Shown: positions 1,533 to 64,000, numbered from the stretch's first letter. The stretch is DNA of 64,000 bases from an uncultured Bacillota bacterium (GCA_937973635.1 CALJJZ010000035.1:10812-74811), one strand, 5' to 3'. Notes: generated from the letters alone by a model not told the origin. Numbers and translations are program-made.

Positions 1533-1534
1533 CT

Positions 1535-7951: not shown

Positions 7952-8104
7952 AGCTCTTCACCATTTACCTGTATATTTTTTGTCGGTCGGTTTGCATACC
8001 CTCCTGGCTCCAGAACAGTTATATATTTCCATTTAGCCCGGTTCTTTTCCTCCCCGGCCCCTAAAATTTTAGCTGCCGCACGGCATAAGCCGCATATCTC
8101 CTTT

Positions 8105-40497: not shown

Positions 40498-41754
40498 CTA
40501 CAGTGCAAGGATTTTGCCGCGTAGTTGAGCCAGGAGACGGAGGTAGGCAAGGGCGTTGTTGGTCAAAAGGAAGTTCTTTCTTACCTTCTCCCTGCCGCGC
40601 TCGCCCATCTCCCGGGCCAGCGGGGGATTGCGCAGGAGCGTCAGGGTCTTGGCGGCACACTCCTCCACCGTATCCGCCAGGTAGCCGTCTACCCCGTCTG
40701 TGATCTGGAGCTTAATTCCGCCTACCCTGCCCCCCACCACGGGACGGCCTTTCCACAGGGCCTCGGCCACGGTAAGGCCGAAACCTTCTTTAAGGGATTT
40801 TTGCAAGACCACGTCTGAAACAGTCTGAAAAGCGTTTACCTCCAGGCCGGTGATCCCGTTAAAGTTGGTCACCACTTTGACGTCATAGTCCTCGCCGGCT
40901 TTGCGCAGCGTCCTGTAGAGGTAATCCCAGCCTTCCGGGTCATCGTGGGCCATGGAGCCTACCAGGGCCAGCTGCACCTCCGGCAGCTCCTTTTTGACCA
41001 TACGGTACACATCGAGAACACCCAGAGGGTCTTTCCAGGGATCAAAGCGGGAAACCTGAGAGATAAGGGGCCGGCTGAGATCAATGCCAAAACCGGCGAC
41101 GATCTCCCGTGCCTGCTCCGGCGCCAGAGGGGCGTTTTTGAGGCTGAGGGGGTCGATGGAAGGAGTAATAAAAGCCAGAAAAGGCAGGCCGTGATCTTCC
41201 TTTACGTAAGCGGGCAGGGAAAAGATACAGGCATCATAAAGGGAGATCTAGCCATGGAGGAAGCTCCAGTAAGCGGGGTGGGGGGCCGAGGTATCGATAT
41301 GGCAGCGCCAGATCCACTTTTCACCGGCCTTCCTGCCCCGGTAGTAAAGCAGAGCCGCAGGCTGGGGATCATGGATGACATAGTAGTCGTAGCGCCAATC
41401 CTGCATGGCCCGGGCATTAAGCTCATTGTAACGGAGGTAGACCTCTAGATCTCGCTGCTGCAGGCAGCCTTTCTGCCCCTGCAGGCCATTATGGAAGTTC
41501 TTGGTAATATAAAAAAACTGATTGGAGCAGCCGCTGATGATCCACCAGTGGACTTCCAGACCCAGATCGTTGAGCAGGGGGACCAGGGAATGGAGTTTTT
41601 CCGCCACCCCCCCTCCATAGCAGGTAGCGCTGACCATGGCAACCCTTGCGCCCCGCAGGTCTTCAAGCAGCGCCGTGAAAGCGTCGAGGGTCTGGAGGTC
41701 TAAAAAACGGCAATAATCTCTAAAGCTTTTTTTCCCTGTTTGTACCTGTTTCAA
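40498..41754 (-). pseudogene. treT: TreT-like trehalose glycosyltransferring synthase (GT4) interrupted by a single in-frame TAG at 41250..41248
   Basis: The ORFs 41248..41754 and 40498..41010 are in the same frame. Manual translation across the gap is continuous (...AYWSFLHG*ISLYDACIFSLPAYVKEDHGLPFLAFITPSIDPLSLKNAPLAPEQAREIVAGFGIDLSRPLISQVSRFDPWKDPLGVLDVYRMVKK...). That gives a 418-codon TreT-length protein with one amber codon. Confidence 0.6.
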
Positions 41755-47142: not shown

Positions 47143-47153
<11 letters not shown>

Positions 47154-48354
47154 CGTTGAGCTCTCCGCCTTTCTGCTGGCCCTCTTCCGCCACAAACATA
47201 TTGATCAGGGTCACATCGTCGCTGAAGCTGTCCGCACCGGCAAAGTCCCGCAGCATCTGCACTAAAGACGGGACTAGCTGCGATGCCTTTGTCCTGTCCA
47301 TCCCCTTTAACAAAGCGCGCAGGCGCCCTTCGCCGAACTGTTCCCCGTCTTTATTTTTCTGCTCTGTTAAGCCGTCCGTATATAAAAAGAGCCCCTCCTC
47401 TGCTGACAGCTGCACCGCCTGCTCCCTAAAGTCTTTCCCTTCTCCCAGAGACATGATTGGGCTGCCATAACAAACCAGCTCCCGCAGCCCCCCTGCCCCG
47501 CCGTACAGAAAAACGGGCTGGGCAAACCCGGCAGCGGAGTACGTCAGGGTCCTTTCCTTGCTATGGTAAAAGGCCAGGAAGATGGTAATAAATATCTCGG
47601 GCGGAAAGTCCTCCTCCCGGAAAGCTTCTTCCAGTGCCAACAGGCAGCGGCGGGGGCTAAAGGGGCCTACTCCCTCTCCGAAGGAGAGCTTGCGGAAATA
47701 GCCGGCAAGGGTCTCCCGGATAAAGACCGTGAGCATGGCGGCATCGAGCTGGTGGCCGGAGACATCGGCCAGGTAAAGGCAGACTACGTCTCCTCCCAGG
47801 CTGAAAATATTAAAATAATCCCCGCCCAGCAGCTCTGCCGGCTGGTAAAAAGTATTAAATCTTAGGTTGGCGGGGGAGGGGTACTCCCGGGGTAGGAGGG
47901 CCCGTTGAATGCGCTGGGCCGTTTTAATATTGGCAAGAAGGTTTTCATTCAGCTCCTTTAGCTGCTGGTAGTAACGGCGCAGGCGCAAGAGGGACCTTAC
48001 CCGCGCCTTCAGCTCCATAGGATCCACCGGCTTGCTTAAAAAATCGTCGGCGCCCATCTCTAGACACTTTAATTTGGCCGCCCGGTCGTGCAGGGCTGTA
48101 ACCATAATCACGGGGATGAACATAGTCTCCTCCCTGCTTTTAAGCCGGCGGCAGACTTCAAAACCGTCAAGGCCGGGCATGACAATATCAAGAAGGACCA
48201 GATCCGGTTTTACCTCCTCCACTCTCACAAGGGCTTCCTCACCTGAGGCAGCCTGCGAAATCTGCGTATAGCCAGCCTCTTCTAAGTAGCGCTGCAGCAA
48301 CCTGCGGTTAAGTTGTTTATCGTCCACAATGAGTATTTTGGGCGGAGCTCCCAC
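47143..48354 (-). CDS. Response regulator with PP2C/SpoIIE phosphatase output (RsbY/RsbU-like)
   Basis: REC domain with phosphoacceptor in LVLLDIVMPGLDG, then a PP2C region (GGDYFNIF...LADVSGHQLDAAML). Confidence 0.8.
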
Positions 48355-48407
48355 CGTTTTCCCCCCGCATAAAAATAAAAGAGTACTGCCGGAATCCGAT
48401 ACCGCGG

Positions 48408-48719
48408 TCAGATAATTTTAATCACCTTATCCAGCTGGATGATCCTGAACATCCTGCTGACATTCTCGTTAGTCACGTTGCTCACACGCAGCTCGCCGTG
48501 CCGTTCCTTGAGCAGTTTATGGAACAGCAAAAGTTTGCCCAGCCCGGAGCTGTCGATGGCGTTTACATGGGTAAAATCTATGGTAATGGTGTTATATCCT
48601 TCATCATAAAGCTCCAGCAGCTTCTCTTTTAGCCCCTGAGAGTTGGAGATATCTATGCTCCCCTCCGGAATTACTACAACCGCCTTGTCGTCCGTCTTTA
48701 CTGTTTTCATTTCAAGCAA
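48408..48719 (-). CDS. STAS-domain anti-sigma-antagonist-like protein (phosphorylatable Ser present: IDSSGLG)
   Basis: 103 aa with a SpoIIAA-like fold and a DSSG motif. Confidence 0.75.
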   Translation of the reverse strand: MLEMKTVKTDDKAVVVIPEGSIDISNSQGLKEKLLELYDEGYNTITIDFTHVNAIDSSGLGKLLLFHKLLKERHGELRVSNVTNENVSRMFRIIQLDKVIKII

Positions 48720-48732
48720 AGCCCCCTTTAGA

Positions 48733-50604
48733 TTAAAATAAGGTCAGATCTCCCTCTGCCGAGCCCTCGTCCAGCTCATGGGCCTGCAGGTACTCCTTTG
48801 CCTGCAGGCGCTCCAGGTAGCTTGTAAAAAGTTTATACAGTTCCAGCAGTTCTGCGTTTTTCTCCTGCCATTCCTGCAGCCCCCAGCGCTGCAGCTCCAC
48901 CTCCTGCTGCTCCCTAGTCACCTGGACAATCTCCCCAAAGAGCACTTTGAGTCTCCCCACGGCCTGATGCAGGTGCACTGTATGCTGCAAAGCGTCGTTG
49001 ACTTCCTGCAGTTTCTGGAACAACGCCGTAATCTCGGCAGAGAGGGCGAGGACAGCCTGGCCGGCGATCTTGTTTGCCGCGCCAAAACGCTCCAGGTTGA
49101 CGTTTACCTCTGTGAGGGCATGGTCGATATGTCCCTGGTTGCGGAAGACAAGCTGAGCAAAGCGGTCCAGGTCCCTCTGCAGGCGGCCTTTAAGTTTAAA
49201 AAACGAGTTCCTATTCACCGTGACCGTCTCGTCCACCGCCTCAATTACCCCATCGATCTTGCTGCCGATGGCTGCATCGTGCCGGTTAATCCGCGCCAAC
49301 TCAATGCGGGACAGCAGCTTGATCTTTTTCAACAGGGAAACCCGCTCCTGGACAGCTTCAAGGCTTTGCTGCACCTGCAAGATATTCTCGTCGTAAAGGC
49401 TGCGGTCCTCCACCAGGCTGTTTACCCTTTTCCTGATCTCCAGCAGGACCTCCTTGAACTCCTCCATAAAGGCATAAACCGAGCTAAAGGTATAATCTAC
49501 GGCGGTCAGGGTCCTGCTGCCATGCCTGATAGAAGGCTCACCGGCCAGATAGGCAGCCAGGAGCTGTGCTTCCTCTCTGACCCCGTCAAGGGCCTGCAGG
49601 AGGTTCTTGGCCGTCAGGCCGATCTGGTTCAAGGAAGCCACCAGCTGCTCAGACATCCCCTCCACAAGTTTCTGTGTCATCCCCGCCACGCCGTTGACAA
49701 AAACGATATGGTCAAGGCGTCTTTCCTTTGTCTCTGGGGCAACGGGTAAAAAAAGGTACGTCTTGTATTTTAATTCCAAAGCCTGCAGGCACCTGATGCT
49801 GTTCTCCATGTTCTGCCTGATAATATCCTGGCGCTGGATCAACCCCATCAGCTCCTGGAAAGGCGAGAGCACCAACTGCACATTGGCGATGATATTTTTT
49901 AAGATTTTGCTCATCTCCCCGATGGAGGCAATAAGGTTGGCAAAGATCTCTTCTAACCTGTTAATATAACCCTTTACCGCTGTCTCCTGGTTGCCGATAA
50001 TGCCCTGTACATCTTCCTGGAATTCGCTGTACCAGCGGTTCAAAGCTATAAGGAAAGCGTCGATGCGCTGGAATTCCTTTTCCAGGAAAATAGATGTCTG
50101 CAGGATATGGTCCGAGACGACAGCAAAGGCCCTCCCTTCCTCGCCGAGCCGGGAAGAGAAGATAATGGCGTTTAAAGAGATGTCGTTAACGTCGGAAAGG
50201 GTCCTTTTAATCACACCTACCAGGTCAATAAAGGTGCGGAAAGAGTTCTCCCGGTTCTCTCCGCCCAAAAACAAGCCCAGCAAACGGTTCACGTCTTCCT
50301 GCCCTACTAAAAGGGTGCTGATCTCCCTAAAATTATCCCGCACCTTTTGCAGCGCTTGAGCAAAAAGGAGAAACTCGCCAGCTTTAGCGGCCTGGGCCGT
50401 CTGCTCTGATTGGATAAAGTAGTTAATCAGGATATTGGTCTCCTGCTGTGTAAGCTCCAAGTTCCGCTCGATCACCGGCAGGCTTTCGTGTACAATGCCG
50501 TAATAATGCTCTGTCTCCCCGATCAGTTCCTGCAACTTCATGACAGTGTCTTCAATTACTTTCAGCAGGTGCTGTTCTACCCTGCCCACGGCTTGCTCCG
50601 CCAT
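48733..50604 (-). CDS. Soluble, divergent MCP-signalling-domain protein (MCP highly conserved hairpin-tip-like motif near the N-terminus, about 450-aa C-terminal region of unknown function)
   Basis: Residues 139-166 (LSLNAIIFSSRLGEEGRAFAVVSDHI) match the MCP tip [26 protein letters not shown] at about 15 of 26 positions, the same order as the bona fide MCP in this window. There are no TM segments and the remainder is coiled-coil-rich. Confidence 0.55.
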   Translation of the reverse strand: MAEQAVGRVEQHLLKVIEDTVMKLQELIGETEHYYGIVHESLPVIERNLELTQQETNILINYFIQSEQTAQAAKAGEFLLFAQALQKVRDNFREISTLLVGQEDVNRLLGLFLGGENRENSFRTFIDLVGVIKRTLSDVNDISLNAIIFSSRLGEEGRAFAVVSDHILQTSIFLEKEFQRIDAFLIALNRWYSEFQEDVQGIIGNQETAVKGYINRLEEIFANLIASIGEMSKILKNIIANVQLVLSPFQELMGLIQRQDIIRQNMENSIRCLQALELKYKTYLFLPVAPETKERRLDHIVFVNGVAGMTQKLVEGMSEQLVASLNQIGLTAKNLLQALDGVREEAQLLAAYLAGEPSIRHGSRTLTAVDYTFSSVYAFMEEFKEVLLEIRKRVNSLVEDRSLYDENILQVQQSLEAVQERVSLLKKIKLLSRIELARINRHDAAIGSKIDGVIEAVDETVTVNRNSFFKLKGRLQRDLDRFAQLVFRNQGHIDHALTEVNVNLERFGAANKIAGQAVLALSAEITALFQKLQEVNDALQHTVHLHQAVGRLKVLFGEIVQVTREQQEVELQRWGLQEWQEKNAELLELYKLFTSYLERLQAKEYLQAHELDEGSAEGDLTLF

Positions 50605-50640
50605 AACACCCCTCCTTCTTTTCCCAGCGACAAGGAAAAG

Positions 50641-51729
50641 CTAGCCGCGCACATAACTTACGATGGCCCCGCCGATATCATCCAGGGGCAAGATCTTATC
50701 CACAGCCCCCGCCGCGATGGCCTGCTTAGGCATGCCAAAAACAACAGAGCTCTGCTCGTCCTGGGCGATGGTCAGGGCGCCTGCGTCATGCATGGCTTTT
50801 AATCCCCGGGCGCCGTCGTCCCCCATACCCGTAAGGATAATGCCCAGGCTATTGCCGGAAGCATTTTGGGCTACAGAGAAAAAGGTCTTATCCACAGAGG
50901 GGCGGTGCCGGTTTACAGGCGGGCCGTTATCCAGGCGCACGATAAAACCGCTTGCTCCCTTGGACAGGAGCATATGTTTGCCTCCTGGCGCGACCAGAAC
51001 GCTGCCGTTGACGAGAGGGTCGCCGTCTTGAGCCTCCTTGACCCGCAGGCGGCAGAAATTGTTCAGGCTGGCCGCGTAGGAGGCGGTAAAACCGGCAGGC
51101 ATATGCAGCACCACAAGGATGCCCGGCAGGTTGGCCGGCAGCTTAGAGAGTATATTTTTCACCGCCACGGTGCCGCCGGTGGAAGCGCCGATGGCGATGA
51201 CCTTATCTGTGCTCTGCACCAGCCCCCTTCCCGGCTCGCGGGCCGCCAGGTCAGGGATAAGCTCTGCCGGTGCCATCAAGCGGTCGATGCGTTCCTGCCT
51301 GACCTGGCGGCGCAGGACCTCCATGTTTGCCGCAGCAGCATTTCTAATCTTGCCGATTATCTCTGGCGCCAGCTCTTCCAGGGCGCTCCCCAGACCCAGA
51401 GTAGGTTTAGAAATGTAATCCACGGCACCGAGTTCCAAGGCACGGAGTGTAGCTTCGCTCCCCTCCCGGGCCAGGGAGCTGATAACCACCACGGGCAGGG
51501 GATAGGAGGCCATCAACTTTTCCAGAAAAGTAAGGCCGTCCATCCGGGGCATCTCCAGGTCGAGGGTAATCACGTCAGGGCGCTCCTCTTTGATCTTTTT
51601 GATGGCGTACAGGGGATCGTTTGCCGTGCCCAGCACCTCCATACCCCGTTCCCTGGAGATAATGCGGGCTAGCAGTTCCCGTACCAGCGCTGAGTCGTCC
51701 ACAATGAGTACTTTAATCGGCTTAGGCAT
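50641..51729 (-). CDS. cheB: Chemotaxis response regulator protein-glutamate methylesterase
   Basis: REC domain (LIVDDS...DVITLDLEMPRMDG) and the methylesterase catalytic Ser region GASTGG. Confidence 0.9.
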   Translation of the reverse strand: MPKPIKVLIVDDSALVRELLARIISRERGMEVLGTANDPLYAIKKIKEERPDVITLDLEMPRMDGLTFLEKLMASYPLPVVVISSLAREGSEATLRALELGAVDYISKPTLGLGSALEELAPEIIGKIRNAAAANMEVLRRQVRQERIDRLMAPAELIPDLAAREPGRGLVQSTDKVIAIGASTGGTVAVKNILSKLPANLPGILVVLHMPAGFTASYAASLNNFCRLRVKEAQDGDPLVNGSVLVAPGGKHMLLSKGASGFIVRLDNGPPVNRHRPSVDKTFFSVAQNASGNSLGIILTGMGDDGARGLKAMHDAGALTIAQDEQSSVVFGMPKQAIAAGAVDKILPLDDIGGAIVSYVRG

Positions 51730-52334
51730 TACCTGTGGCCCCTCCCATTGTTAAAAATCGTCAGCTCGCTTTCTTTCTGCTGCTGCTGGCGCATCCAGTA
51801 AAAGAAACGCTTTTCCCGGGAAATGGCATCTTCCAGCGTCTGGTTATACTGGATGCGTTTCAGGTAAACTGTAAACTCTTCGGGGAAAAAAAAGATCTTG
51901 CGCCCGTATTTGCCGCCTAAGTTCTCCGCAAGCACCGGGATCTCTTCCATCTGCAGGTAGGTAAGGGCAAAATCAATATTGGACTGAGAGACATTGAGCA
52001 GGGTCGTATCCATGACCTTCCCTCCGCCAAAGACTTTGGCTTCTAGGGTGTCGCGGCGGGCGCCGAGCTTCATCATGCTGTTAATCATCTTTTCCATGGC
52101 ATTGATGCCATAACGGGCGTCCTGGCTGAAAAGGATCTCTTCGGCACGCAGGCTCCCCGGCAGCATAAAATGGTTCATGCCCACAATGCCCGTAGTCCTG
52201 TCCCGCAGACAGACAGAGACACAGGAACCGAGGAGCGTGGTCAGAATGATATTTTTCTCCCGCGTAGCGTAATAGTCCCCCGCGAACAGCTCGTACGTGT
52301 ATTTGTTAAAAGTCCGGTTGAAATACTTTTTCAA
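51729..52334 (-). CDS. cheD: Chemoreceptor glutamine deamidase
   Basis: CheD family, 201 aa (LGSCVSVCL...GMNHFMLPG). Confidence 0.85.
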   Translation of the reverse strand: MKKYFNRTFNKYTYELFAGDYYATREKNIILTTLLGSCVSVCLRDRTTGIVGMNHFMLPGSLRAEEILFSQDARYGINAMEKMINSMMKLGARRDTLEAKVFGGGKVMDTTLLNVSQSNIDFALTYLQMEEIPVLAENLGGKYGRKIFFFPEEFTVYLKRIQYNQTLEDAISREKRFFYWMRQQQQKESELTIFNNGRGHR

Positions 52335-52358
52335 CGCTTCCTTTGCACCACCTTGCCC

Positions 52359-53225
52359 TCAGCCGAGCTTTTGATAGATGGTATGTTTAAGCAGCCGCCA
52401 CCTCCCGGCATTGCCGGAAACAGTATTAATGGATTCGGAATGGCCCAGGAAGAGGAGCCCGCCCTCCATAAGGTGCCGGTGGTAACGCTTTAACACCCTT
52501 TGCTGCGTCTCTTTGTCAAAATAGATAAAGACATTGCGGCAAAAAATAAAATTAAGGGCCTCCCCCACGGGATATTCGCCGGCACTGGTAAGGTTAATGC
52601 GACGGAAAGTGATCAGCTCCCGCAGCATGTCTTTGACCTTGAAAAAACCCGCATTTGGTCCCGTGCCCAACTTAAAATAGGTTTTCAAGTTCTCATAGGG
52701 AATACCTTCCACTTCGTCCTTGCTGTAGATGCCCTCGCGGGCCTTTTGCAGCGTTTCTGTATTAATATCGGAAGCCAGGATCTGGATCTTCCAGTTTTTG
52801 TGCCCTTTGAAATAGCGGTGCAGCACCATGGCGATGGTATAAGGCTCTTCGCCCGTAGAGCAGCCGGCGGACCAGCAGCGCAGGCGGCGGGGCACAAGGC
52901 CCGCCGCCGCCAGCTCTTCCAGCCGGGGCAAGTACTCTTCCACCAGGTAGGCATAGTGGTGGTTCTCCCGGAAAAACTTGGTCACGTTGGTGGTAATAAG
53001 ATTAAACATGGTATCAAGCTCGCCAGGATTTTCCCGGACATATCCAAGGTACGCGCTCACGTCTTTGAGCTGTAGCTCCCGCAGCCTGCGGGAAAGGCGG
53101 GAAATCGTCAACGCCCTTTTGCTTTCCGTTAGGTTCACCCCGATGGAGTTGTAGATCATCTCGCGGATGGCGAGGAATTCTTTATCCGTTAAGGTGTACT
53201 GTTTGCCCGGCAGCGTCGCCATCAT
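52359..53225 (-). CDS. cheR: Chemotaxis protein methyltransferase
   Basis: CheR N-terminal helical domain and SAM-MTase motif WSAGCSTGEEPY. Confidence 0.9.
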   Translation of the reverse strand: MMATLPGKQYTLTDKEFLAIREMIYNSIGVNLTESKRALTISRLSRRLRELQLKDVSAYLGYVRENPGELDTMFNLITTNVTKFFRENHHYAYLVEEYLPRLEELAAAGLVPRRLRCWSAGCSTGEEPYTIAMVLHRYFKGHKNWKIQILASDINTETLQKAREGIYSKDEVEGIPYENLKTYFKLGTGPNAGFFKVKDMLRELITFRRINLTSAGEYPVGEALNFIFCRNVFIYFDKETQQRVLKRYHRHLMEGGLLFLGHSESINTVSGNAGRWRLLKHTIYQKLG

Positions 53226-55339
53226 GACCCTGCCACCTTCGCCGTCTCGCTGCCGCTGTAATCAGCCTTGCGCACCAGGCGGAAGAGGGAGGAGACGTCC
53301 AGAATGATGGCCACTTTCCCGTCGCCCATGATCGTGACTCCGGCCACGCCGTCGACCTGCTCCATGTTTTCCTTAATGCTTTTAATTACTACCTGTTCCT
53401 GGCCGATAATCTCGTCTACAAGCAGCGCCATCTTTTTCTGGCCATCCTTGATGATCACTAGGATCCCCTCCGTGGGACGAGTATGCTCTGCTTCCAGGTG
53501 CAGCAGCTGGTAAAGGGCGGAGTAGGGGATATACTCGTTGCGCAACTGCATAATCAACCCTTTGCCCTCTGCCTGCCGGATGTCTCCCTGGCGGGCTTTA
53601 ATAAATTCCATAATAGAGGTGAGAGGGATGATAAAACGTTCCGTGCCCACCCGTACCATCATGCCGTCGATAATAGCCAAGGTCAGGGGCAGCTTGATGC
53701 TGAATTTTGTCCCCTTGCCCCGTTCAGAAAAGAGCTCCACGCTGCCGCGCAGGTTCTTAATATTGTTGGCCACCACATCCAGCCCTACCCCGCGACCGGA
53801 GATGTCAGAAACCTCTTTGGCCGTGGAAAAACCGGGCATAAAGAGCAGGCGCTGCAGCTCCGCCTGGCTGGGCAGACGGTCCTTTTCCACCAGCCCCCTT
53901 TCCCTGGCCTTCGCCAGGACGGCTTCTTCGTTGATCCCCCTACCGTCGTCGCTGATCTCAATGACAATATTCCCTTCCTGGTGAAAAGCATTGAGATGGA
54001 TCGTGCCCTGAGGTTTCTTGCCGGCAGCTAGGCGCTCCTCCGCCGTCTCCAGGCCGTGATCCACGGCATTGCGGATGAGATGCTTCAGGGGGTCCGTGAT
54101 CTGCTCAATGACCTTTTTATCTAGCTCCGTCTCCTTGCCGCTCATCACCAGCTCGATTTCTTTGCCTTTTTCCCGTGCCAGATCCCTGACCATGCGCTGG
54201 AAGCGCATAAAGGTGCCGCCAATGGGGATCATGCTGGTGGTCATGACCTCCTCTTGGAGGAAACGGATAATTTTGTCCACTTCCTGGAAAGCATTCAACA
54301 CCTCCGCCACCGCTGCCCGTTCTCCCAGCATTTTGGAAACAAGCTCTTTCACGCGGGACTGGGCAATGAGCAGCTCGGCGATATAATTCAGGATCTCTTC
54401 CAACTTACCTGTATCTACGCGAATGGTGTTGGCCTGCTCCTGCTCGCGGAAGCGCTGCTGCGTCTGCATGACCTTGCTCACCTGCCCGCTGGCAAGCTTG
54501 CCCTCAAGCACCAAAAGCTCCCCCACTCGCTTCTGCTTGGCCAGGACCTCTTCTACCTCTTCAGGTGAAATTAGGCCCCGCTCCACGAGCATCTCCCCGG
54601 TCCTTTTCTCTCCGTGAAACCACTGGTCCAGCTCATTGGTGATCTCGTCGATCTTGATCTCGTTGTCGTCGGCAACAAAAATAAAGATATTTTCCAGCTC
54701 TTCTTTACTGCTGCCTGTCTCCAGAAAGATAGTCCAGGAAAGATAGAGCTGCTGCGGATCAAGTTCCTGCAGAGGGGGCAACTTGGCCATATTCACGTAG
54801 TTCTCCAAAAAGACGCCCGTCTCTTCCAGCTCCAGCAAAAGCATCAGGGGATCTGTGCCCGTGGCAAAAAGGTCCGGTTTAAACTTCAGCTCTAGCTTAT
54901 AGTAGCGCTTTCCTGGAGAAGCCTTAGGGGGAGCTTCCTTTTCTGCCGGTGTTTCTCCCCCGGCAGCATATAAATCGGCTTTCCGGATCAGCTCTGCTAC
55001 CTCTTTCTGGTAAGCCGTACCCTCGGGGTCGCCGCTTTCCAAGAGCTGGCGCAAGACATCCAGCCCGGCAAACATAAGAGAGAATACCTCCCTGGGCATA
55101 CCTTCTCCGGACTGGCGGATCTGATCTAAGATGTTTTCCAGGTGGTGAGCCGCCTGGCTAATCTGGGTAAAGCCCATGAGGCCGGCCCCTCCTTTAATTG
55201 TATGCATGGCCCGGAAAACAAGGTCGATCAGCCCCATATCCCCGGGGTTGTCTTCTAGCTCCAGGAGCCCTTCCTCCAGGGACTGGAGGTTTTCCTCCGT
55301 CTCTTCGATAAAAATTTTAAGCATATCTTCACCGGCCAA
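53222..55339 (-). CDS. cheA: Chemotaxis histidine kinase CheA (P1 Hpt, dimerisation, HATPase_c, CheW-like P5)
   Basis: P1 His in AMHTIKGGAG, G-boxes in the HATPase_c domain, and a C-terminal CheW-like domain. Confidence 0.9.
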   Translation of the reverse strand: MAGEDMLKIFIEETEENLQSLEEGLLELEDNPGDMGLIDLVFRAMHTIKGGAGLMGFTQISQAAHHLENILDQIRQSGEGMPREVFSLMFAGLDVLRQLLESGDPEGTAYQKEVAELIRKADLYAAGGETPAEKEAPPKASPGKRYYKLELKFKPDLFATGTDPLMLLLELEETGVFLENYVNMAKLPPLQELDPQQLYLSWTIFLETGSSKEELENIFIFVADDNEIKIDEITNELDQWFHGEKRTGEMLVERGLISPEEVEEVLAKQKRVGELLVLEGKLASGQVSKVMQTQQRFREQEQANTIRVDTGKLEEILNYIAELLIAQSRVKELVSKMLGERAAVAEVLNAFQEVDKIIRFLQEEVMTTSMIPIGGTFMRFQRMVRDLAREKGKEIELVMSGKETELDKKVIEQITDPLKHLIRNAVDHGLETAEERLAAGKKPQGTIHLNAFHQEGNIVIEISDDGRGINEEAVLAKARERGLVEKDRLPSQAELQRLLFMPGFSTAKEVSDISGRGVGLDVVANNIKNLRGSVELFSERGKGTKFSIKLPLTLAIIDGMMVRVGTERFIIPLTSIMEFIKARQGDIRQAEGKGLIMQLRNEYIPYSALYQLLHLEAEHTRPTEGILVIIKDGQKKMALLVDEIIGQEQVVIKSIKENMEQVDGVAGVTIMGDGKVAIILDVSSLFRLVRKADYSGSETAKVAGS

Positions 55340-55353
55340 AACAGCCTCACCAC

Positions 55354-55734
55354 CTATTTAACGAATTTTTTCACTACAGCAATGAGCTGCTCCGGTTTAA
55401 ATGGCTTAACCAGCCAACCGGCAGCTCCGGCATTTTTCCCTTCCATCTTTTTTTGTTCCTGTGATTCTGTAGTAAGTACAAGGATGGGAATAAATTTTAA
55501 AGCGGTATTTTTTTTAACCTCTTTAATAAAAGTAATCCCGTCCATACGCGGCATATTAATATCCGTAATGATCATGGCCGGCTTTTTGCCCTTATTGCCC
55601 AGCTCCTGGAGACGCTCCAGCCCGTCCTGACCGTCCACCGCCGCAACTACCTCATAGCCCCCCTTGGACAGGGTATACTCCAGAGAAGCCCTGACCGTCT
55701 TTGAGTCATCCAGAACAAAAATAAACTTGTTCAT
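55354..55734 (-). CDS. cheY: CheY-like single-domain response regulator
   Basis: 126 aa. It has D (in LDDS), phosphoacceptor in MIITDINMPRMDG, T (LTTES) and K (VKPF). Confidence 0.85.
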   Translation of the reverse strand: MNKFIFVLDDSKTVRASLEYTLSKGGYEVVAAVDGQDGLERLQELGNKGKKPAMIITDINMPRMDGITFIKEVKKNTALKFIPILVLTTESQEQKKMEGKNAGAAGWLVKPFKPEQLIAVVKKFVK

Positions 55735-56024
55735 TGTCCCTTGAATACTCCCTTCTCCACAATATCAACGGCCCCTGAAAGTTCCAGTAACTGTTCCAGC
55801 ATCTTTCCCCTGTTCATCAGGCTAAAAGAGAGGCCTTCCCGCTGGCAGGCTTTAAACGTAGCCAGGAGTAGCTGTATACCGGCTGCATCGACATCCTGCA
55901 GGACAGCAGCATCCAGCACAAACTCCTTTTTCCCCTCTTTCATCCTTTTTCCCAGGTGCGCCAGGATCTCCTCCCGCACCTCCCGGACATTGTGGATATT
56001 CAAAAATTCAGGGAGTTTCAACAT
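55731..56024 (-). CDS. STAS-domain protein with Ala in place of the phosphorylatable Ser (DVDAAG instead of DSSG)
   Basis: 97 aa with a SpoIIAA-like fold. Its start overlaps cheY (ATGA). Confidence 0.65.
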   Translation of the reverse strand: MLKLPEFLNIHNVREVREEILAHLGKRMKEGKKEFVLDAAVLQDVDAAGIQLLLATFKACQREGLSFSLMNRGKMLEQLLELSGAVDIVEKGVFKGQ

Positions 56025-57222
56025 CGGTCATCATCCCCTTGTCATTTTCCCAAAACGGTTCTGCCGCGTCCATCCGCACTATTCCCCCCAGGGCATTTTC
56101 CCGCAGCTCATTATGGCGGGCCATACCCCGGGCATGGTCGCAGTACATAATACCCGCCTCCCCGTTTTCGCAGCAGCGGTTGCCAGCCAAAAGCGGGGCC
56201 GCATAATCCCGGACAATAATGCCAGACCAGTTATTTTTTAAGCATTCGTTCCTTTTTGCCATGCCAGTAGCATGATCGAAAAAGGTAATGCCTCCTTCTT
56301 CATTTCCCTGGCAGATATTGTGGAGCAGCACGGGGGCAGCCTGCTCCAGGACGGCAATGCCAGACCACTTATTGCGGAGGCAGCGGCAATAAAAAGCGCC
56401 GCCGCCGCTTAAGCCCATAAAAGCTATGCCCGTTTCGCCGTTGGAGCTGCACTCGTTTTCCTGCAGGAAGGGGGCGGCTTGCTCCAGCACCGTAATGCCG
56501 TCGGAGCTGTTGTTAAGGCACCTGTTCCCCCGGGCCAAGCCCCCGCTCTGATGGAAATAGACAATGCCAGATTCGCCGTTTTCATAACAGTGGTTGGCTT
56601 CAAGGAGCGGGTGGGCCTTCTCCAGCACGGCGATACCCGCCCGGCCATTACTGGTGCAGGTGTTCTCCAGCACCACCGCGCAGGAACCGCCCAGGAGGAC
56701 GATGCCCGCATGGCCGTTGTCTCGGCAGGTATTCTGCTCAAGGGAGGCCCTGGACTGCCCCGTTACAGCGATGCCGGACCTGTCATTGCCATAACTGAGA
56801 GAGGCGGCAATGCTGCCCTGCGCTCCACTACCTAGCCAAAGGCCGTCTCCGCCTGAAGCCGCGCCTTCCGCATAAACACCACCGCTGAAAGCACAGCCCT
56901 CGATCACCACCGTGCCCTCCTTGACCTGTAAAACATTTGCCCCTGCCTTACCCCCATATTGAAAGGCAATACCGCTAAACTGCCAGCTTCCCCTGCCCTC
57001 CAGCAGCACAACGGCGGGGCCGCCCTCGCCAATAATCTTCGTCTGCTCTCGCCCTTTCCCTTTAAGGGCCAGAGGCTTGGTGAGGACAAGGGGTTCCGCC
57101 AGGCGGTATTCACCTGCGGCAAGGAGCAGAATATCCCCCTCCCCGGCAACAGCAAGGGCCCCGCGCAGGTTTTCCGCTCCCGGGGCAACTTGTAAAATAC
57201 GGCCTTCTTTCCCTTTGTCCAT
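56008..57222 (-). CDS. Cytoplasmic right-handed parallel beta-helix (PbH1) repeat protein
   Basis: 404 aa with no signal peptide. About eleven exact-period 23-aa repeats of consensus N-x-C-x-x-N-G-x-x-G-I... run from residue 141 to 393. Confidence 0.6.
   Translation of the reverse strand: MDKGKEGRILQVAPGAENLRGALAVAGEGDILLLAAGEYRLAEPLVLTKPLALKGKGREQTKIIGEGGPAVVLLEGRGSWQFSGIAFQYGGKAGANVLQVKEGTVVIEGCAFSGGVYAEGAASGGDGLWLGSGAQGSIAASLSYGNDRSGIAVTGQSRASLEQNTCRDNGHAGIVLLGGSCAVVLENTCTSNGRAGIAVLEKAHPLLEANHCYENGESGIVYFHQSGGLARGNRCLNNSSDGITVLEQAAPFLQENECSSNGETGIAFMGLSGGGAFYCRCLRNKWSGIAVLEQAAPVLLHNICQGNEEGGITFFDHATGMAKRNECLKNNWSGIIVRDYAAPLLAGNRCCENGEAGIMYCDHARGMARHNELRENALGGIVRMDAAEPFWENDKGMMTDVETP
56044..56802 (-). 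repeat. Coding tandem repeat, 69-bp period (the PbH1 repeats of the beta-helix protein)
   Basis: Derived from the 23-aa protein periodicity seen in the translation. Confidence 0.55.
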
Positions 57223-57246
57223 TTTTCCCCTCCCTGGCCCTGCCCT

Positions 57247-57606
57247 CTAGAGCTTCTCCTGCCAGCCGGGGCGCTGGAAAAACCTTTTTAGCTCCTCAAC
57301 CTGGCGGGTCAGTGCATCTAAAAGCTCCTTTGCTTCCTCCAAACGCCCTTCTTTTCCAGCAGCCTCCAGTTCAAGGGCAAGTTTGTACGCTGTCTGCGCG
57401 CCGATATTGCCTAGCTCACCTTTAAGGCCATGGGCAGGGGCAACAATCCCCTGGGCATCCTGCCGGCTGAGCGCTTCCTGGACAACATTAAGGTCATGGC
57501 AGCAGTCTTCAAAAAAGAGGGCTACAATCTCCGCCAGAAGATCTTTGCTGCCACCCATCTGCTTGAGCATGTTTTCCAAATCGGGGTGCATCTTCTCGTG
57601 GTGCAT
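57247..57606 (-). CDS. Stand-alone Hpt (histidine phosphotransfer) domain protein
   Basis: 119 aa. Hpt signature around HGLKGELGNIGA, as in the ArcB/Ypd1/HptB family. Confidence 0.7.
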   Translation of the reverse strand: MHHEKMHPDLENMLKQMGGSKDLLAEIVALFFEDCCHDLNVVQEALSRQDAQGIVAPAHGLKGELGNIGAQTAYKLALELEAAGKEGRLEEAKELLDALTRQVEELKRFFQRPGWQEKL

Positions 57607-57689
57607 CTTCAGTTCTCCTTTACCCTTAAACCTTTTAGCTATTTGTTTTTTTCCACAAATTTCTCCTTTTTTCCTTTTTGCCCCGCAAA

Positions 57690-58157
57690 TTATTTGTTCC
57701 CTGCCTCACCTGAGCTCCCTTGCTGCAGTTTTGTAGCCTGCATACAGCCTTCCATCTCCATATTGACGGGCCTGTCCACCTGCCTGCTCTGTGCTAGAAG
57801 GCCAGGGCCGCCTAGCCCCATGAAGTTGAACTCTTGGCACTTGAGCTTGAGAGGATTTTCTTCAATGCAGATCACGTGCTGCAGGCTGAGGCGGTCAAAG
57901 AGCTGCCTGACAAAGGGGTGGCCCACATTGACCAGTTTCAGTTCGCCTCCTTGCTCTTTCAGCCGCTTCTGAGTAACAAGCAAGCAGCTCAACCCGGCGC
58001 TGTCGATGCGCTGCAGAACGTCGCAGTCCAAAGCTAGAACGCTGCAGCCTTCTTCTAAGAGCCGGCCCAATACTTGCTTCAGCTCCCCTGCGTTGGTCAT
58101 ATCCACAAAAGAGGGGAGCCTAACCAGGGCGCAGCTCTTCTCCTTCTCCACTCTCAT
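57690..58157 (-). CDS. STAS-domain protein with a C-terminal extension (Ser retained: IDSAGLS)
   Basis: 155 aa: a STAS core of about 110 aa plus a tail of about 45 aa. Confidence 0.65.
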   Translation of the reverse strand: MRVEKEKSCALVRLPSFVDMTNAGELKQVLGRLLEEGCSVLALDCDVLQRIDSAGLSCLLVTQKRLKEQGGELKLVNVGHPFVRQLFDRLSLQHVICIEENPLKLKCQEFNFMGLGGPGLLAQSRQVDRPVNMEMEGCMQATKLQQGSSGEAGNK

Positions 58158-60084: not shown

Positions 60085-61098
60085 TCAAGCTTCCACAAGC
60101 TGCTCAAGGCGGAGCCCTTTTCCCCAGAAGAGATAAAGACAGGCCTTGGTAACATCCGGGTCATAACAGCACCCTTTCTGCCGGTCGATCTCCCCCAGGG
60201 CCTCCTCCATACCCAAGGCAGGGCGGTAGGGGCGGTGCGAATTTATGGCCTCCACTACGTCCGCCACGCATAAGATCTTCGCCTCCAGGAGGATCTCGTG
60301 ATCTTTCAGGCCCGAAGGGTAGCCGCTGCCATCGATTTTTTCATGGTGCTGAGCAATGATGCGGGCAATGGGCCAGGGGAAATAAGTTTCGCCCAGGATC
60401 TCACTGCCGACCTGAGGGTGCATCTTCATCATGCTGAACTCTATCTCGCTGAGTTTGCCCGGCTTGGTCAGGATCTCCGCCGGAATAGCGATCTTGCCAA
60501 TATCGTGAATTAAAGAGGCCAGGCGCAGCCCTTCGATACGCTCTTTCTCCAGGCCCATCTCCCTAGCGATGCTCACGGCCAGAGCTGCTACTCGGCGCTG
60601 GTGCCCAGCCGTATAAGGGTCCCGCTTCTCGATCATCTTGCCCATACCCCGGATGATCCCTTCCCTGCTCTCCAGCAGCTGCAGCTCCGCTTTTTCCCTT
60701 TCCCTTTCCAGCTTCCTTAAATAGAGCAGCCGCCGTACACGGTGGCGGAGCTCTTCTTTGTTAATGGGCTTGGTCACAAAATCAGAAGCCCCGGCCTGAT
60801 ACGCCTGCTCCATGATCCCCCCTTCGTCTTTGGCCGTAACCATAAGCACGGGCACAAGTTTTCCCCCGGTTAGCTCTTTAATCTTCCGGCAGGCTTCCAG
60901 CCCATCCATAACAGGCATGACAATATCCAACAAAACCATGTCAGGCTGTTCCGTTAAAAACAAGTGCAGCACCTGCCTGCCGTTCTCCGCTTCCTTAACT
61001 TGCAGGCCCTCGCTGTTTAAAATATGGGCAATCATCCGTCTGGAAGCCTTATGGTCATCGGCCACGACGACCAGAGGTGCCGTCCGGGCAGAGAACAT
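60085..61098 (-). CDS. Response regulator with HD-GYP phosphodiesterase output (RpfG-like)
   Basis: REC domain (VVVADD...MVLLDIVMPVMDG) and HD-GYP domain (LIHDIGK, AQHHEKIDGSGYP). Confidence 0.8.
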   Translation of the reverse strand: MFSARTAPLVVVADDHKASRRMIAHILNSEGLQVKEAENGRQVLHLFLTEQPDMVLLDIVMPVMDGLEACRKIKELTGGKLVPVLMVTAKDEGGIMEQAYQAGASDFVTKPINKEELRHRVRRLLYLRKLEREREKAELQLLESREGIIRGMGKMIEKRDPYTAGHQRRVAALAVSIAREMGLEKERIEGLRLASLIHDIGKIAIPAEILTKPGKLSEIEFSMMKMHPQVGSEILGETYFPWPIARIIAQHHEKIDGSGYPSGLKDHEILLEAKILCVADVVEAINSHRPYRPALGMEEALGEIDRQKGCCYDPDVTKACLYLFWGKGLRLEQLVEA

Positions 61099-61115
61099 CG
61101 CTATCCCTACTTTCT

Positions 61116-61523
61116 TCAGACTTTACCTTCTTCACCTTGACCTTGGAAGGCCTTTAAGCTCTCCACCAGCGTAAGGACGTCGTCCCCAAAGTTTTCCCGG
61201 GAGACATAACCGTCAAAACAGGCTGTTCCTGCATTAGAATCAAAAAGCAGGGCTTTGAAGACAGTTAGGCCGATAATTTTTGTCCCCGCTGCCACTTTTT
61301 TCAGCCTTCTGCAGAGCTCAGGCGTATCCCCACCCGCAAAAACAGGGTTGAGGAAGATAATCTGGGGTTGTAATTGCCTGGTTATCCTCAGAGCCTGTTC
61401 TGCGTCGTCACTCAGCATCACTTCGTCCACCAGCTGCAGGGTAGATAAAAAGTGCCGAGCAACCTGGTTGAACGGGCCTTTCAGGTCGATGATCAGTATA
61501 TTCAAAGGAGCCATTTTTTTCAT
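61116..61523 (-). CDS. Pseudo-receiver domain protein (REC fold lacking the phosphoacceptor Asp and the conserved Lys)
   Basis: Beta1 is ILIIDLKG (single acidic residue). At the beta3 end, IIFLNPVF has Asn where Asp is expected. There is no K in the beta5 region. Confidence 0.5.
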   Translation of the reverse strand: MKKMAPLNILIIDLKGPFNQVARHFLSTLQLVDEVMLSDDAEQALRITRQLQPQIIFLNPVFAGGDTPELCRRLKKVAAGTKIIGLTVFKALLFDSNAGTACFDGYVSRENFGDDVLTLVESLKAFQGQGEEGKV

Positions 61524-61661
61524 CCTTTTTAAGAGGTGTAGCCAACACATAAGAGGCGCAGCCAGCACGCCCGGTTGCACCTCCTATTATACTTCGGCCC
61601 GGCCAGGGATCCATATCAGCAAGTTCCCTATTAAGGAGCGCAACATTTCCCATATCTCCAT

Positions 61662-61688
61662 AAAAAAAGCCCCATTTTAAAACAGGGC
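61662..61688 (-). terminator. Weak intrinsic terminator candidate downstream of the NarL-type regulator gene (short GC stem plus U7)
   Basis: On the minus strand: GCCC-tgttttaaaatg-GGGC followed by TTTTTTT (plus-strand A-run at 61662-61668). Confidence 0.3.
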
Positions 61689-61726
61689 ATAGAGCACAGA
61701 CCTTGAAGCAAAATTTAGAGGTTTCA

Positions 61727-62371
61727 TCAGGGTTCCAGCAGGCCGATCAACCTGGCAAACTGGCGGATATCTCCTTCCTGGCGCAGTTCCAGCTTTTCCA
61801 TGATGTTGCTCTTATGCCTGTCCACCGTTTTGGGGCTGATACAAAGCCTTCTGCCGATCTCCGAGCGGCTGCAGTTCCTGGCCCACAGGTTAAAGACTTC
61901 CTTTTCCCGGGAAGTCAGCTTGCTGTAACTGGCCATGGCGCCGCTACTTGGGCCTGCTTGCAAATAACCGGCCAGCACGGGCTGGAGCACCGCAGAGCTC
62001 AAATAGGGCCTGTCCTTTTTAACCGCCTCCAGGGCCAGCATAAGTTCATCATAGACCGCGTCTTTATGCACATATCCCATGGCGCCGGACTTTAAAGCCT
62101 GGTCCACATAGATACTATCCGCATAGCCAGAGAGGATCACCACCCTGGCAGAGGGGATATATTCCTTTATCTGTCTGGTCGCCTCCAGGCCGCTCACCCC
62201 CGGCAGGGAGATATCCATAATCACCACGTCAGGGGCCACTTTTGCGCTGAGGGCCACGGCCTCAAGGCCGTCGCCCGCCTCCCCCACCACCTCGATGGAC
62301 CCTTCTTTCTCCAGCAGTGCTCTTAGCCCCTGGCGGAAAAGGGCATGGTCATCAACCAGGAGAACACGCAT
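61727..62371 (-). CDS. NarL/FixJ-family response regulator (REC plus LuxR-type HTH)
   Basis: REC domain (LLVDDH...VVIMDISLPGVSG) and LuxR HTH (LTSREKEVFNLWARNCSRSEIGRRLCISPKTVDRHKSNIMEKL). Confidence 0.85.
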   Translation of the reverse strand: MRVLLVDDHALFRQGLRALLEKEGSIEVVGEAGDGLEAVALSAKVAPDVVIMDISLPGVSGLEATRQIKEYIPSARVVILSGYADSIYVDQALKSGAMGYVHKDAVYDELMLALEAVKKDRPYLSSAVLQPVLAGYLQAGPSSGAMASYSKLTSREKEVFNLWARNCSRSEIGRRLCISPKTVDRHKSNIMEKLELRQEGDIRQFARLIGLLEP

Positions 62372-62398
62372 ATTTTCACCTCTCGCTCAGTCAAGTTC

Positions 62399-63502
62399 TC
62401 AACACCGCTTAAAAGGTACAGACAATTTAATCGTCGTCCCTTTGCCCGGCATGGCACTGATCTCCATCTTGCCGCCTAAAAGGGAGACCCTTTCCCTCAT
62501 CCCCTGCAGGCCCAGGCGATCCGGAGCCGCAGCAGCCGCAGCCGGGTCAAAGCCGGCACCGTCATCGGCAACGACGATGGAAAGGTCGCCCGGGCTCCAG
62601 GCCAGCTCCACCGCAGCAGTCCTGGCTCCCGCATGTTTGGCGATATTGGTCAGAGCCTCCTGGATACAGCGGTAAAGGGCCGTCTCAATTTCAGGGGGTA
62701 GCTTAACCTCCTCGCCTTTAACCCGCAGATCCGCATCGATACCGGTGAGGCGGCCCAGTTCCTGCAGCATATTGCGCACAACCGCATGGAGCCCAAGGTC
62801 ATCCAGGGCAGGAGGCCGCATTGTCGCTGCTTTATGGCGGATGATGGCCAGGGAATTGTTCACCATCTCGATGCTGGAGGCAAGCCTCTGTTCCAGCTCC
62901 GGCCTTCCGGCAGAGAGCTCTTTTTTTAAGAGCTGTAGCTCTAGCTTGACGGTGGTGAGAGCCATACCTACTTCGTCGTGCAGCTCCCTGGCCAGGCGGA
63001 TACGTTCCTCTTCATAGGCATGGAGTATTTTTTGCGAAAGGGCCTGCATCTCCGCAAGGTTTTCTTGAAGCCGCAGCTCCGCCGCTCTGCGCTTGGCTTC
63101 CAACTCCCGCAGGTACAGCAGGCGGCGGACACGGTGACGCAGCTCCTCCCTGTTAATAGGCTTGGTCAGAAAATCCGCAGCACCAGCTTTAAACGCTCGT
63201 TCCGCCGCGTTGCCGTCGTCCTGCCCCGTAAAAACAAGGATGGGAACCTCACTACCCGCCGGCAGGGATTTAATCCGGGCACATGTCTCTATCCCGTCAA
63301 GGGCGGGCATCATAATATCCAGCAGGACCACATGGGGATAGTGCGTCACAAACATCTCCAGAGCCGTATGCCCGTCTGCCGCCTCCAGAAAGTCTATCCC
63401 GTCAGCTTTAAAGACACTGCGGATCAACCTCCTGGTGGCCCGGTGGTCGTCGGCAATCAAAATCAGCGGCCTGGCTGTTTGGCTCTTCTTCTTAGTGGCC
63501 AT
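62399..63502 (-). CDS. Cytoplasmic hybrid protein: N-terminal receiver plus HisKA_3/HATPase_c histidine kinase (NarX/DegS-type core)
   Basis: REC domain (LILIADD...VVLLDIMMPALDG), H-box LHDEVGMALTTVKLELQ, and C-terminal ATPase G-boxes (VADDGAGFD, GLQGMRERV). Confidence 0.8.
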   Translation of the reverse strand: MATKKKSQTARPLILIADDHRATRRLIRSVFKADGIDFLEAADGHTALEMFVTHYPHVVLLDIMMPALDGIETCARIKSLPAGSEVPILVFTGQDDGNAAERAFKAGAADFLTKPINREELRHRVRRLLYLRELEAKRRAAELRLQENLAEMQALSQKILHAYEEERIRLARELHDEVGMALTTVKLELQLLKKELSAGRPELEQRLASSIEMVNNSLAIIRHKAATMRPPALDDLGLHAVVRNMLQELGRLTGIDADLRVKGEEVKLPPEIETALYRCIQEALTNIAKHAGARTAAVELAWSPGDLSIVVADDGAGFDPAAAAAAPDRLGLQGMRERVSLLGGKMEISAMPGKGTTIKLSVPFKRC

Positions 63503-64000
63503 GACAAGGATCCTTCCCCTTACTGCCGTTTATCTTCTCCAGGATTTTAACGGCTTCGTAAAAATTTTTGCCGTAACAATCTCCCCCCACGTACGGTAGC
63601 AGCGCAGCATCCACATTGAAGATCCTGCCGCCCACAATGACAACACCTTTAAACTGCCGCACCGCCCTGACCTTTTCGATGGTCTCTCGGACAAATCTGA
63701 CATTAAAGGAAAGGGAGCAAGAGAGGCCTAAGGCCGTATAATCGCCCCTGCCCAAAGCCTCGGCAATAAAATGGGGAGGAATGTTTGAACCTAGATAGGT
63801 TACATCCCAGCCCTCCAGTTCCCAGATGTCAGAGAGCATCCTGGCCCCCAGCTCGTGCAGTTCGCTCCCCGGGCAGGCGACAAGCACTTTACCCCTCTCT
63901 TTCTCCCGGGATTCGATGCTTTGCAGCAACGTCGGGTAATGGCTAGAAATAATATTCTGAGTAATCGCCGTAGCCAGGTGCTCCTGGGCCACGCTGATCT
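63492..64000 (-). CDS. Cobalamin (B12)-binding domain protein; the 5' end may lie beyond the window
   Basis: Rossmann-like B12-binding core GKVLVACPGSELHELG (an xHxxG-type motif) preceded by a helical B12-binding_2-like segment. The frame is still open at 64000. Confidence 0.55.
   Translation of the reverse strand, partial: ISVAQEHLATAITQNIISSHYPTLLQSIESREKERGKVLVACPGSELHELGARMLSDIWELEGWDVTYLGSNIPPHFIAEALGRGDYTALGLSCSLSFNVRFVRETIEKVRAVRQFKGVVIVGGRIFNVDAALLPYVGGDCYGKNFYEAVKILEKINGSKGKDPCHGH

Follow-up and report, generated by a model that had tools for sequence, protein, structure and literature searches.

In a 64,000-nucleotide stretch of DNA from an uncultured Bacillota bacterium (GCA_937973635.1 CALJJZ010000035.1:10812-74811; the whole of this stretch is called the window here), two genes place receiver (REC) domains of the same rare clade in front of different enzymes. 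Gene A (60085-61098) encodes a REC-HD-GYP protein and gene B (62399-63502) a REC-HisKA_3 kinase; the letters also serve for the proteins. We found that A is an old domain chimera: its receiver, its alpha5 helix and about 16 linker residues come from inside a clade of histidine kinases under Rec control (Rec-HKs) and are joined to an HD-GYP domain of the RpfG type. All of the sequence-level tests that were applied to B returned the result expected of a Rec-HK of the LvrB kind, which is what B is predicted to be. In the reading that we favour, to which as a whole we assign a probability of about 0.6, one phosphodonor would feed both receivers and a single input would thereby have two outputs, transcription by way of B and a NarL-type regulator, and cyclic-dinucleotide hydrolysis by way of A. 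The lineage-specific chimera probably adds this second output to a conserved cascade that consists of a hybrid kinase, a histidine phosphotransfer (Hpt) protein, the Rec-HK and the NarL-type regulator.

Results

B is a predicted Rec-HK from a narrow clade

A preliminary description of this DNA had reported receivers fused to four different outputs, and Pfam confirms the four architectures where they had been placed: REC-HD-GYP, REC-HisKA_3-HATPase_c, REC-PP2C and REC-GGDEF, all of them encoded on the minus strand. In B, the receiver (Response_reg, 102 bits) has the acidic pair D18/D19, the phospho-acceptor D62, T92 and K114. The kinase core (HisKA_3, 48.5 bits; HATPase_c, 51.5 bits) has the H-box histidine H175 in LHDE together with NIAKH, DDGAG and GLQGM (the N and G boxes), and the closest solved kinase core is that of DesK. 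An AlphaFold2 (AF2) prediction of the monomer makes the alphaS linker a single helix that spans residues 118-196 and runs through the phospho-accepting His175. The best fold match of the model is LvrB (8VC9, E 1e-18), with a sequence identity of only ~18%. A Rec-HK of this kind would be switched by phosphorylation of its receiver from an upstream kinase, to which in the case of B the gene context points (see below).

The relatives of B are few. When one genome per species was scanned, full-length orthologues (49-56% identity) turned up only in metagenome-assembled genomes (MAGs) that bear the label Syntrophomonadaceae and have isolate names pointing to soda-lake sediments. The protein database holds ~42 orthologues at 47-63% identity, after which the scores drop sharply from E 1e-97 to E 1e-66. 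Together these kinases form a narrow clade of ~45 Rec-HKs that is known from metagenomes and MAGs only, the identifiable sources being soda-lake sediments and Syntrophomonadaceae-labelled MAGs. Each kinase in the clade carries the hallmark KPxNxEELRHRVxRLLYLRxLE..R.AAE..L, which leads directly into the H-box of the dimerisation and histidine phosphotransfer (DHp) domain (…LSRKVL.AYEEER.RLARELHDE). Three further searches added little to this picture. A word-indexed search with the receiver of B alone returned only short single-domain proteins, at 49% identity or less, and missed B itself. A profile of the A and B receivers was run against 1.84 billion representatives; its best 150 matches were mostly multi-receiver proteins, in which scores add up, and the kinase orthologue P0328 alone was informative. 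A metagenome scan with the clade alignment, which used the generic patterns GASDF..KP and DD..R. and not the alpha5 hallmark, yielded one extra clade kinase, L083; the next matches were REC-PAS-GGDEF-EAL proteins with a different alpha5 ('PINW').

The stretch shared by A and B that was singled out in the preliminary description is the alphaS signalling helix. Its strong conservation is to be expected within the Rec-HK family; that A retains it on another enzyme is less expected.

The receiver of A comes from the Rec-HK clade

A has an intact phospho-site in its receiver (D14/D15, D58, T88 and K110) and intact catalytic motifs (HD at 198, HH at 251 and GYP at 259; HD_5, 134 bits over profile positions 5-170 of 170). 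Thousands of REC-HD-GYP proteins of the RpfG family are its full-length homologues, and its relatives in the PDB are 5z7c (the best, E 9e-38; a 3'3'-cGAMP-specific HD-GYP protein), then 4mcw and 4r8z (annotated cyclic di-GMP (c-di-GMP) phosphodiesterase). The substrate of A would be c-di-GMP, or possibly 3'3'-cGAMP.

We compared the receiver of A with those of 44 clade kinases and with more than 800 others drawn from the RpfG-family matches of A, from single-domain matches and from multi-REC matches. It is 52-62% identical to those of the clade kinases, a slightly closer match than that of B (47-66%), and with the other receivers collected its identity reaches ~46% at most. RpfG-family proteins are 56-65% identical to A in the HD-GYP domain and 29-47% identical (mean 41%) in the receiver; their alpha5 is unlike that of A (DFVTKPYQREELLARVRTHLELNRLRNHLE) and their linker is longer by 4 or 11 residues. 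Tested for the co-inheritance of receiver and linker that would go with membership of the RpfG family, A is an outsider, with a kinase-clade receiver and a kinase-type alpha5. Along the chain, A follows the kinase-type sequence to about residue 144 (…AELQLLES) and is of the RpfG type from about 149-154. In its AF2 model one helix, 114-159, continues from alpha5.

A neighbour-joining (NJ) distance tree of 186 receivers, built on the 135 columns of this short domain with 300 bootstraps, gives 89% support to a clade made up of A, B and 43 other kinase receivers, and 12% to a kinase-only clade that leaves A out. B groups with P0394 in 86% of replicates and with A as its sister in 0.3%.

A second clade member with an output other than a kinase was not found in the homologue search with A, in the metagenome scan or in the neighbourhoods of the related kinases. 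One candidate for an A-like orthologue beside related kinases, the REC-HD-GYP protein of loci L163 and L164, was rejected, having an unrelated receiver and being 33% identical to A overall. The Rec-HK/NarL/Che cluster of these two loci, which belong to another genome, contains this protein and an EAL-HDOD protein (3047-4141 and 6757-7965), which hints at repeated recruitment of c-di-GMP phosphodiesterases to clusters of this kind.

The resemblance between A and B is old

BLASTP aligns the receivers of A and B without gaps (53% identity over 137 amino acids, E 1e-51). No other two of the window's 10 receivers are as close (15-39% identity for all remaining pairs), and for these two the description as closely related paralogues holds. 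The near identity that had been attributed to their alpha5-linker stretch is true of alpha5 proper, where 15/16 residues agree; over the whole of the quoted stretch the figure is 29/39 (74%). When identity is taken segment by segment, the highest values of each comparison fall in beta5 and alpha5 (0.78-0.94), and alpha1 ranges over 0.31-0.73, with 31% between A and B.

Near identity had been claimed for the DNA too, and there we could not confirm it. The best A/B repeat (direct; 60706-60811 and 63098-63203) is 75% identical over 106 nt, and third codon positions are 33-60% identical in the best-matching segments. At identical amino acids A and B use the same codon 32 times, where local codon usage predicts 27.5 +/- 4.0 (z = 1.1); inside the conserved stretch they do so 11 times with 8.7 +/- 2.3 expected. 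Since this matching is at the level of chance, the synonymous sites are saturated, and the plan to date the duplication from the DNA of the two segments therefore fails; nor are A and B sisters in the tree. The likeness of the two genes in DNA is what conservation of the protein alone gives, and it reflects an old divergence under selection and no recent copy.

A recent duplication or gene conversion is thus an extremely improbable source of the near-identical alpha5. It would fit the fact that the alpha5 helices of A and B agree better with each other than either does with those of foreign kinases (0.79), and that a direct repeat is detectable in the DNA. It is contradicted by the modest identity of that repeat, by codon matching that is at chance level both in the stretch and overall, by the separate positions of A and B in the tree and by foreign kinases such as P0396, which share the exact alpha5 of B and so identify the B-type alpha5 as the ancestral state. 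Recent gene conversion was rejected on the codon evidence. An assembly chimera was rejected as well, because the identical A protein occurs on three assemblies and the receiver genes are too unlike in their DNA (75% at most) for mis-joining. The same locus, identical, is present on two further assemblies that reach past the end of the window.

A candidate phosphodonor for both receivers

The order hybrid kinase, Rec-HK, NarL-type regulator is kept in the related loci L003-L009, L165 and L167, where the genes are spaced by -4 to about 60 nt; L010 is an exception in having the hybrid kinase downstream of the NarL gene. The upstream kinases of the related loci are orthologues (42-57% identity) of the 608-aa hybrid kinase (PAS-HisKA-HATPase-REC) that is encoded upstream of B. 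The window also encodes a free Hpt protein, which is 34-46% identical to the C-terminal Hpt domains of hybrid kinases that, in at least 7 other loci, flank the kinase-NarL module. The fusion is to the upstream kinase in L004, L006 and L167, to the kinase just downstream of NarL in L008, L010 and L165, and to a 1954-aa kinase in L163/L164. When L167:1-2028 is set against L001:1890-3716 and window positions 57247-57606, a fused Hpt (in L167, as in L004 and L006) is seen to correspond to an Hpt-less kinase and a free Hpt gene in the present bacterium, a difference due to gene fission or fusion. We take the pattern of fusions as comparative evidence for a relay that would run from the hybrid kinase (His to Asp) through Hpt to the receiver of the Rec-HK. 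The preliminary description had named the Hpt protein, the hybrid kinase and CheA as possible donors, and it is the free Hpt protein that gains independent support from the fusions.

The likelihood that A shares this donor was judged from six positions in alpha1, which we take to be the equivalents of the residues of Spo0F that contact Spo0B. They read HASMHI in A, HATLSV in B, and RASMNI, HATLHI and similar in the clade. Scored at these positions, A reaches a median of 16 with the clade. With 873 other receivers the median is 1 and the maximum 16, and only 0.1% of them attain the clade median in their match to A. Because A keeps the contact-equivalent residues of the clade, along with an intact phospho-acceptor site, it would most likely be served by the donor of B.

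A number of observations weigh against the reading with a chimera and a common donor. The ratio of receiver identity to HD-GYP identity, taken as a test of chimerism, gives 41% for the receiver of A where ~50% is expected, a deviation within about 1 standard deviation. Polarised sites number 1, 2 and 1 and give no branching order for A, B and the foreign kinases. The faster-evolving protein is B (A equals the foreign consensus and B differs at 16 sites, the reverse being true of 10), so that a distance tree of 135 columns may suffer from long-branch effects. A and B differ at 3/6 of the contact-equivalent positions, and the likeness in alpha1 cannot be separated from common ancestry. The Rec-HK/NarL module is consistently linked to a CheA cluster, and CheA or another kinase could be the donor instead of Hpt. 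A terminator-like hairpin at 61669-61688, if functional, may divide the genes into two transcription units, with A and the pseudo-receiver gene before it kept apart from B and its NarL partner. Insulation of paralogues after duplication is, moreover, frequent.

In a rival account, the two paralogues are insulated from each other. The receiver of A would have come from the kinase clade and then been rewired to a different donor, for example CheA or a 1153-aa hybrid kinase encoded in the window, with alpha5 and the linker kept for the coiled-coil switch only. This would suit the overall identity of A and B (only 52-53%), the low identity of their alpha1 helices and the differing contact-equivalent positions, as well as the age of the divergence, the place of A beside the genes for an MCP (methyl-accepting chemotaxis protein), STAS and Hpt, with a possible terminator ahead of it, and the HD-GYP protein with an unrelated receiver that L163 has in the same kind of cluster. 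The contact-equivalent residues of A nevertheless fall within the variation of the orthologous kinases and are closer to the clade than those of 99.9% of the other receivers, and across the receiver as a whole A is the more conservative of the two proteins. On balance we regard insulation as rather unlikely and prefer a donor common to A and B.

The PP2C and GGDEF receivers lie outside the A/B subfamily

The preliminary description had gone further and proposed a branched phosphorelay in which GGDEF, HD-GYP, PP2C and a second kinase could be four outputs of one phosphodonor, with all four receivers in a single subfamily. All four are indeed intact and are followed by helical linkers, and their genes lie within 25 kb together with those for Hpt, two hybrid kinases and CheA. 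The receivers of the PP2C and GGDEF proteins are, however, only 32-39% identical to those of A and B. This is the background level (the PP2C receiver is also 39% identical to the second receiver of the hybrid kinase), and the database receivers that resemble them more closely run into the hundreds: in a pool of 831 that unites all of the searches and is enriched for A/B-like sequences, ordered by identity to the PP2C or the GGDEF receiver, A and B come only 106th-408th. The motif that had been cited for a common subfamily (D[FY]hxKP…EL…R[VI]R.L) is a general receiver consensus. At the contact-equivalent positions the two receivers read KLNLRY (PP2C) and SFVYDT (GGDEF), and their scores of 0 and -8 put them at the 34th and 1st percentile in comparison with A. 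The REC-GGDEF gene is 20 kb off, beyond carbohydrate-metabolism genes on the plus strand. These comparisons place both receivers outside the A/B subfamily, and four outputs from one donor are very unlikely; the proposed branching is plausible for A and B, which share a rare clade and have like alpha1 residues.

Layout of the locus

The features of the locus are collected in Table 1. Downstream of A the order of genes is MCP, STAS, free Hpt, beta-helix protein, a second STAS, CheY, CheA, CheR, CheD and CheB; after CheB come an MCP-like protein, a third STAS, REC-PP2C and the 1153-aa hybrid kinase, which has two receivers. Upstream of B lie a gene for a B12-binding_2 + B12-binding protein, a small open reading frame (ORF) and the gene for the 608-aa hybrid kinase, the last two beyond the window.

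Table 1. Coordinates of the genes, domains and other features in the window (pLDDT, predicted local distance difference test)
Feature	Position	Strand	Evidence
A: REC - alphaS-type helix - HD-GYP response regulator, 337 aa	60085-61098	-	Pfam, motifs, AF2 pLDDT 93.9
A receiver domain, residues 10-122, Rec-HK clade type, not RpfG type	60733-61071	-	Identities, NJ tree
A residues 114-159, predicted continuous helix: alpha5 + linker + first HD-GYP helix	60622-60759	-	AF2
Stretch quoted in the preliminary description, copy in A, residues 105-143	60670-60786	-	
A HD-GYP catalytic domain, residues 154-316	60151-60639	-	56-65% identity to RpfG-family proteins
B: REC - alphaS helix - HisKA_3 DHp - HATPase_c, 367 aa	62399-63502	-	Pfam, motifs, AF2 pLDDT 85.1, LvrB fold match
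B residues 118-196, predicted continuous helix: alpha5, linker and DHp helix 1, includes H175; alphaS signalling helix	62915-63151	-	AF2, clade-wide conservation
Stretch quoted in the preliminary description, copy in B, residues 109-147	63062-63178	-	29/39 identical to A
NarL/GerE-type response regulator, presumed cognate output of B	61727-62371	-	Gene pair with Rec-HK kept in all related loci
Pseudo-receiver, 17 nt upstream of A, probably co-transcribed with A	61116-61580	-	
Hairpin of 8 bp resembling a terminator, with T7 after it; lies between the NarL and pseudo-receiver genes (gap of 146 nt)	61669-61688	-	Consensus scan only
Free Hpt protein of 119 aa, proposed as phosphodonor for the A and B receivers	57247-57606	-	Pfam, fused homologues
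B12-binding_2 + B12-binding protein gene, 3' part (full product 227 aa; full gene L001:4096-4779)	63492-64000	-	
REC + SpoIIE/PP2C protein	47143-48354	-	Pfam
REC + GGDEF protein	39392-40390	-	Pfam

The B12-binding gene overlaps the start of B by 11 nt and is absent from all of the orthologous loci examined (L003-L010 and L163-L167); its product may provide a lineage-specific cobalamin or light input to kinase B. The pseudo-receiver scores 26.7 bits with Response_reg, which is below the threshold, and has lost the DD pair, with Asn in place of the phospho-acceptor Asp. Weak syntenic homologues of it follow the NarL gene in L167 (with Glu at the acceptor site) and in L015.

The Che cluster (47143-58157, minus strand) is interleaved with parts of a partner-switching system, namely the STAS proteins at 48408-48719, 55731-56024 and 57690-58157 and the REC-PP2C protein. 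It also contains the beta-helix/NosD-like protein (56008-57222) and a 623-aa protein (48733-50604) whose match to MCPsignal is sub-threshold only. Elsewhere in the window, positions 546-7951 on the minus strand encode a type I CRISPR-Cas system with Cas7/DevR, a 610-aa protein without a match in Pfam, a Cas3 helicase whose HD domain is C-terminal, a WYL-WCX regulator and Cas6. A trehalose synthase (TreT N-terminal and glycosyltransferase 1 domains) is split over two ORFs on the minus strand, 40498-41010 and 41248-41754, with ~240 nt between them, and may represent a frameshift or a pseudogene.

Discussion

Our findings suggest a circuit in which phosphorylation of the receiver of B would send a signal along one long alphaS helix, composed of alpha5, the linker and DHp helix 1, and so switch the HisKA_3 kinase, which would in turn phosphorylate the adjacent NarL-type regulator. 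The donor of B would also phosphorylate A, in which alpha5, continuing as a coiled-coil linker, is expected to control the HD-GYP domain. The best candidate for the route of phosphoryl transfer leads from the neighbouring, conserved hybrid kinase through the free Hpt protein to A and B. One input would then govern transcription, by way of the Rec-HK and the NarL-type protein, and the hydrolysis of a cyclic dinucleotide by A. The pairing of donor and receivers, the switch in A and its substrate are the parts of this circuit that we infer.

The two proteins might also meet directly. Their near-identical alpha5 and similar linker heptads lie in the region that makes the phosphorylation-dependent dimer in Rec-HKs (the 4-5-5 receiver interface and the alphaS coiled coil), and on these grounds A and B could form mixed dimers via alpha5/alphaS. 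The receiver-helix module of A would be the dominant partner in them and would directly link kinase activation and the hydrolysis of cyclic dinucleotides, or antagonise them. We think this distinctly improbable. If it were true, a signalling helix common to both would let a kinase and a phosphodiesterase regulate each other physically, instead of their simply sharing a phosphodonor.

If the two-output circuit is correct, evolution has performed a natural experiment in which the receiver and signalling helix of a HisKA_3 kinase were moved to an HD-GYP hydrolase and have been kept there by purifying selection. This would suggest that the alphaS coiled-coil switch recently described for the Rec-HK LvrB is portable to a different class of enzyme, and an Hpt protein that feeds a Rec-HK/NarL branch and an HD-GYP branch would tie the regulation of genes to the turnover of a second messenger in this uncultured anaerobe. 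The shuffling of receiver domains and Rec-HKs themselves are already documented, as are phosphorelays with one branch to a transcription factor and another to a c-di-GMP phosphodiesterase, and no new category is needed for the present system. Its main value is as a natural test of whether the signalling helix of a Rec-HK can control an HD-GYP domain.

Among known systems, the RpfG family (RpfC/RpfG; PA4781, 4r8z; PmGH, 4mcw; V-cGAP3, 5z7c) has the same two-domain architecture as A, the same length and the same HD/GYP motifs. A differs from it in a receiver and alpha5/linker that are of another lineage and in a linker that is shorter by 4 or 11 residues. In DgcR-type Rec-GGDEF cyclases a coiled-coil register switch operates (PMC8041772). 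There, as would be the case in A, the receiver controls a dimeric cyclic-dinucleotide enzyme by way of an alpha5 that runs on into a coiled-coil linker; the output is a cyclase in those proteins and a hydrolase in A. We know of no structure that shows a coiled-coil register switch for an HD-GYP domain.

Kinase B is best compared with the Lvr pathway of pathogenic Leptospira, in which the hybrid histidine kinase LvrA acts on the Rec-HK LvrB and this on LvrC (PMC13269768; PDB 8VC9). When the receiver of LvrB is phosphorylated, the receivers rearrange to a 4-5-5 dimer, the alphaS coiled coil forms and the catalytic and ATP-binding (CA) domain is freed (PMC13269768). B resembles LvrB in its Rec-DHp-CA architecture, its long alphaS helix and the adjacent upstream hybrid kinase. 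It differs in a DHp domain of the HisKA_3 (DesK-like) type and in its presumed output, which is a NarL/GerE regulator whereas that of Lvr is a Rec-anti-sigma protein; an Hpt step is also implied here. To our knowledge, LvrB has no paralogue that shares its receiver with a phosphodiesterase.

The order of kinase, receiver, second kinase and NarL/FixJ-type regulator is also that of the transmitter-receiver-transmitter-receiver (TRTR) relays such as TodS/TodT and RedCDEF (PMC3018481, citing Busch et al. 2009). By analogy with them, the receiver of B may, as an alternative, pass its phosphoryl group directly to the DHp histidine. In those relays the modules are fused in one protein (TodS) or the second transmitter does not autophosphorylate; B has all of the kinase motifs.

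As a network, the circuit that we propose comes closest to the Roc system of Pseudomonas aeruginosa, where RocS1/RocS2 (HK-REC-Hpt) act on RocA1 (REC-GerE) and RocR (REC-EAL) (PMC12051241). Common to both would be a phosphorelay that ends in Hpt and has two branches, one to a transcription factor of the GerE type and one to a c-di-GMP phosphodiesterase under the control of a receiver. Here the transcription branch would pass through a second kinase, the Rec-HK, the predicted hydrolase is of the HD-GYP instead of the EAL type, and the Hpt protein is free. The hybrid kinase and Hpt module that stand upstream of the receivers in a system of the Roc type have their counterparts in the 608-aa kinase and the free Hpt protein.

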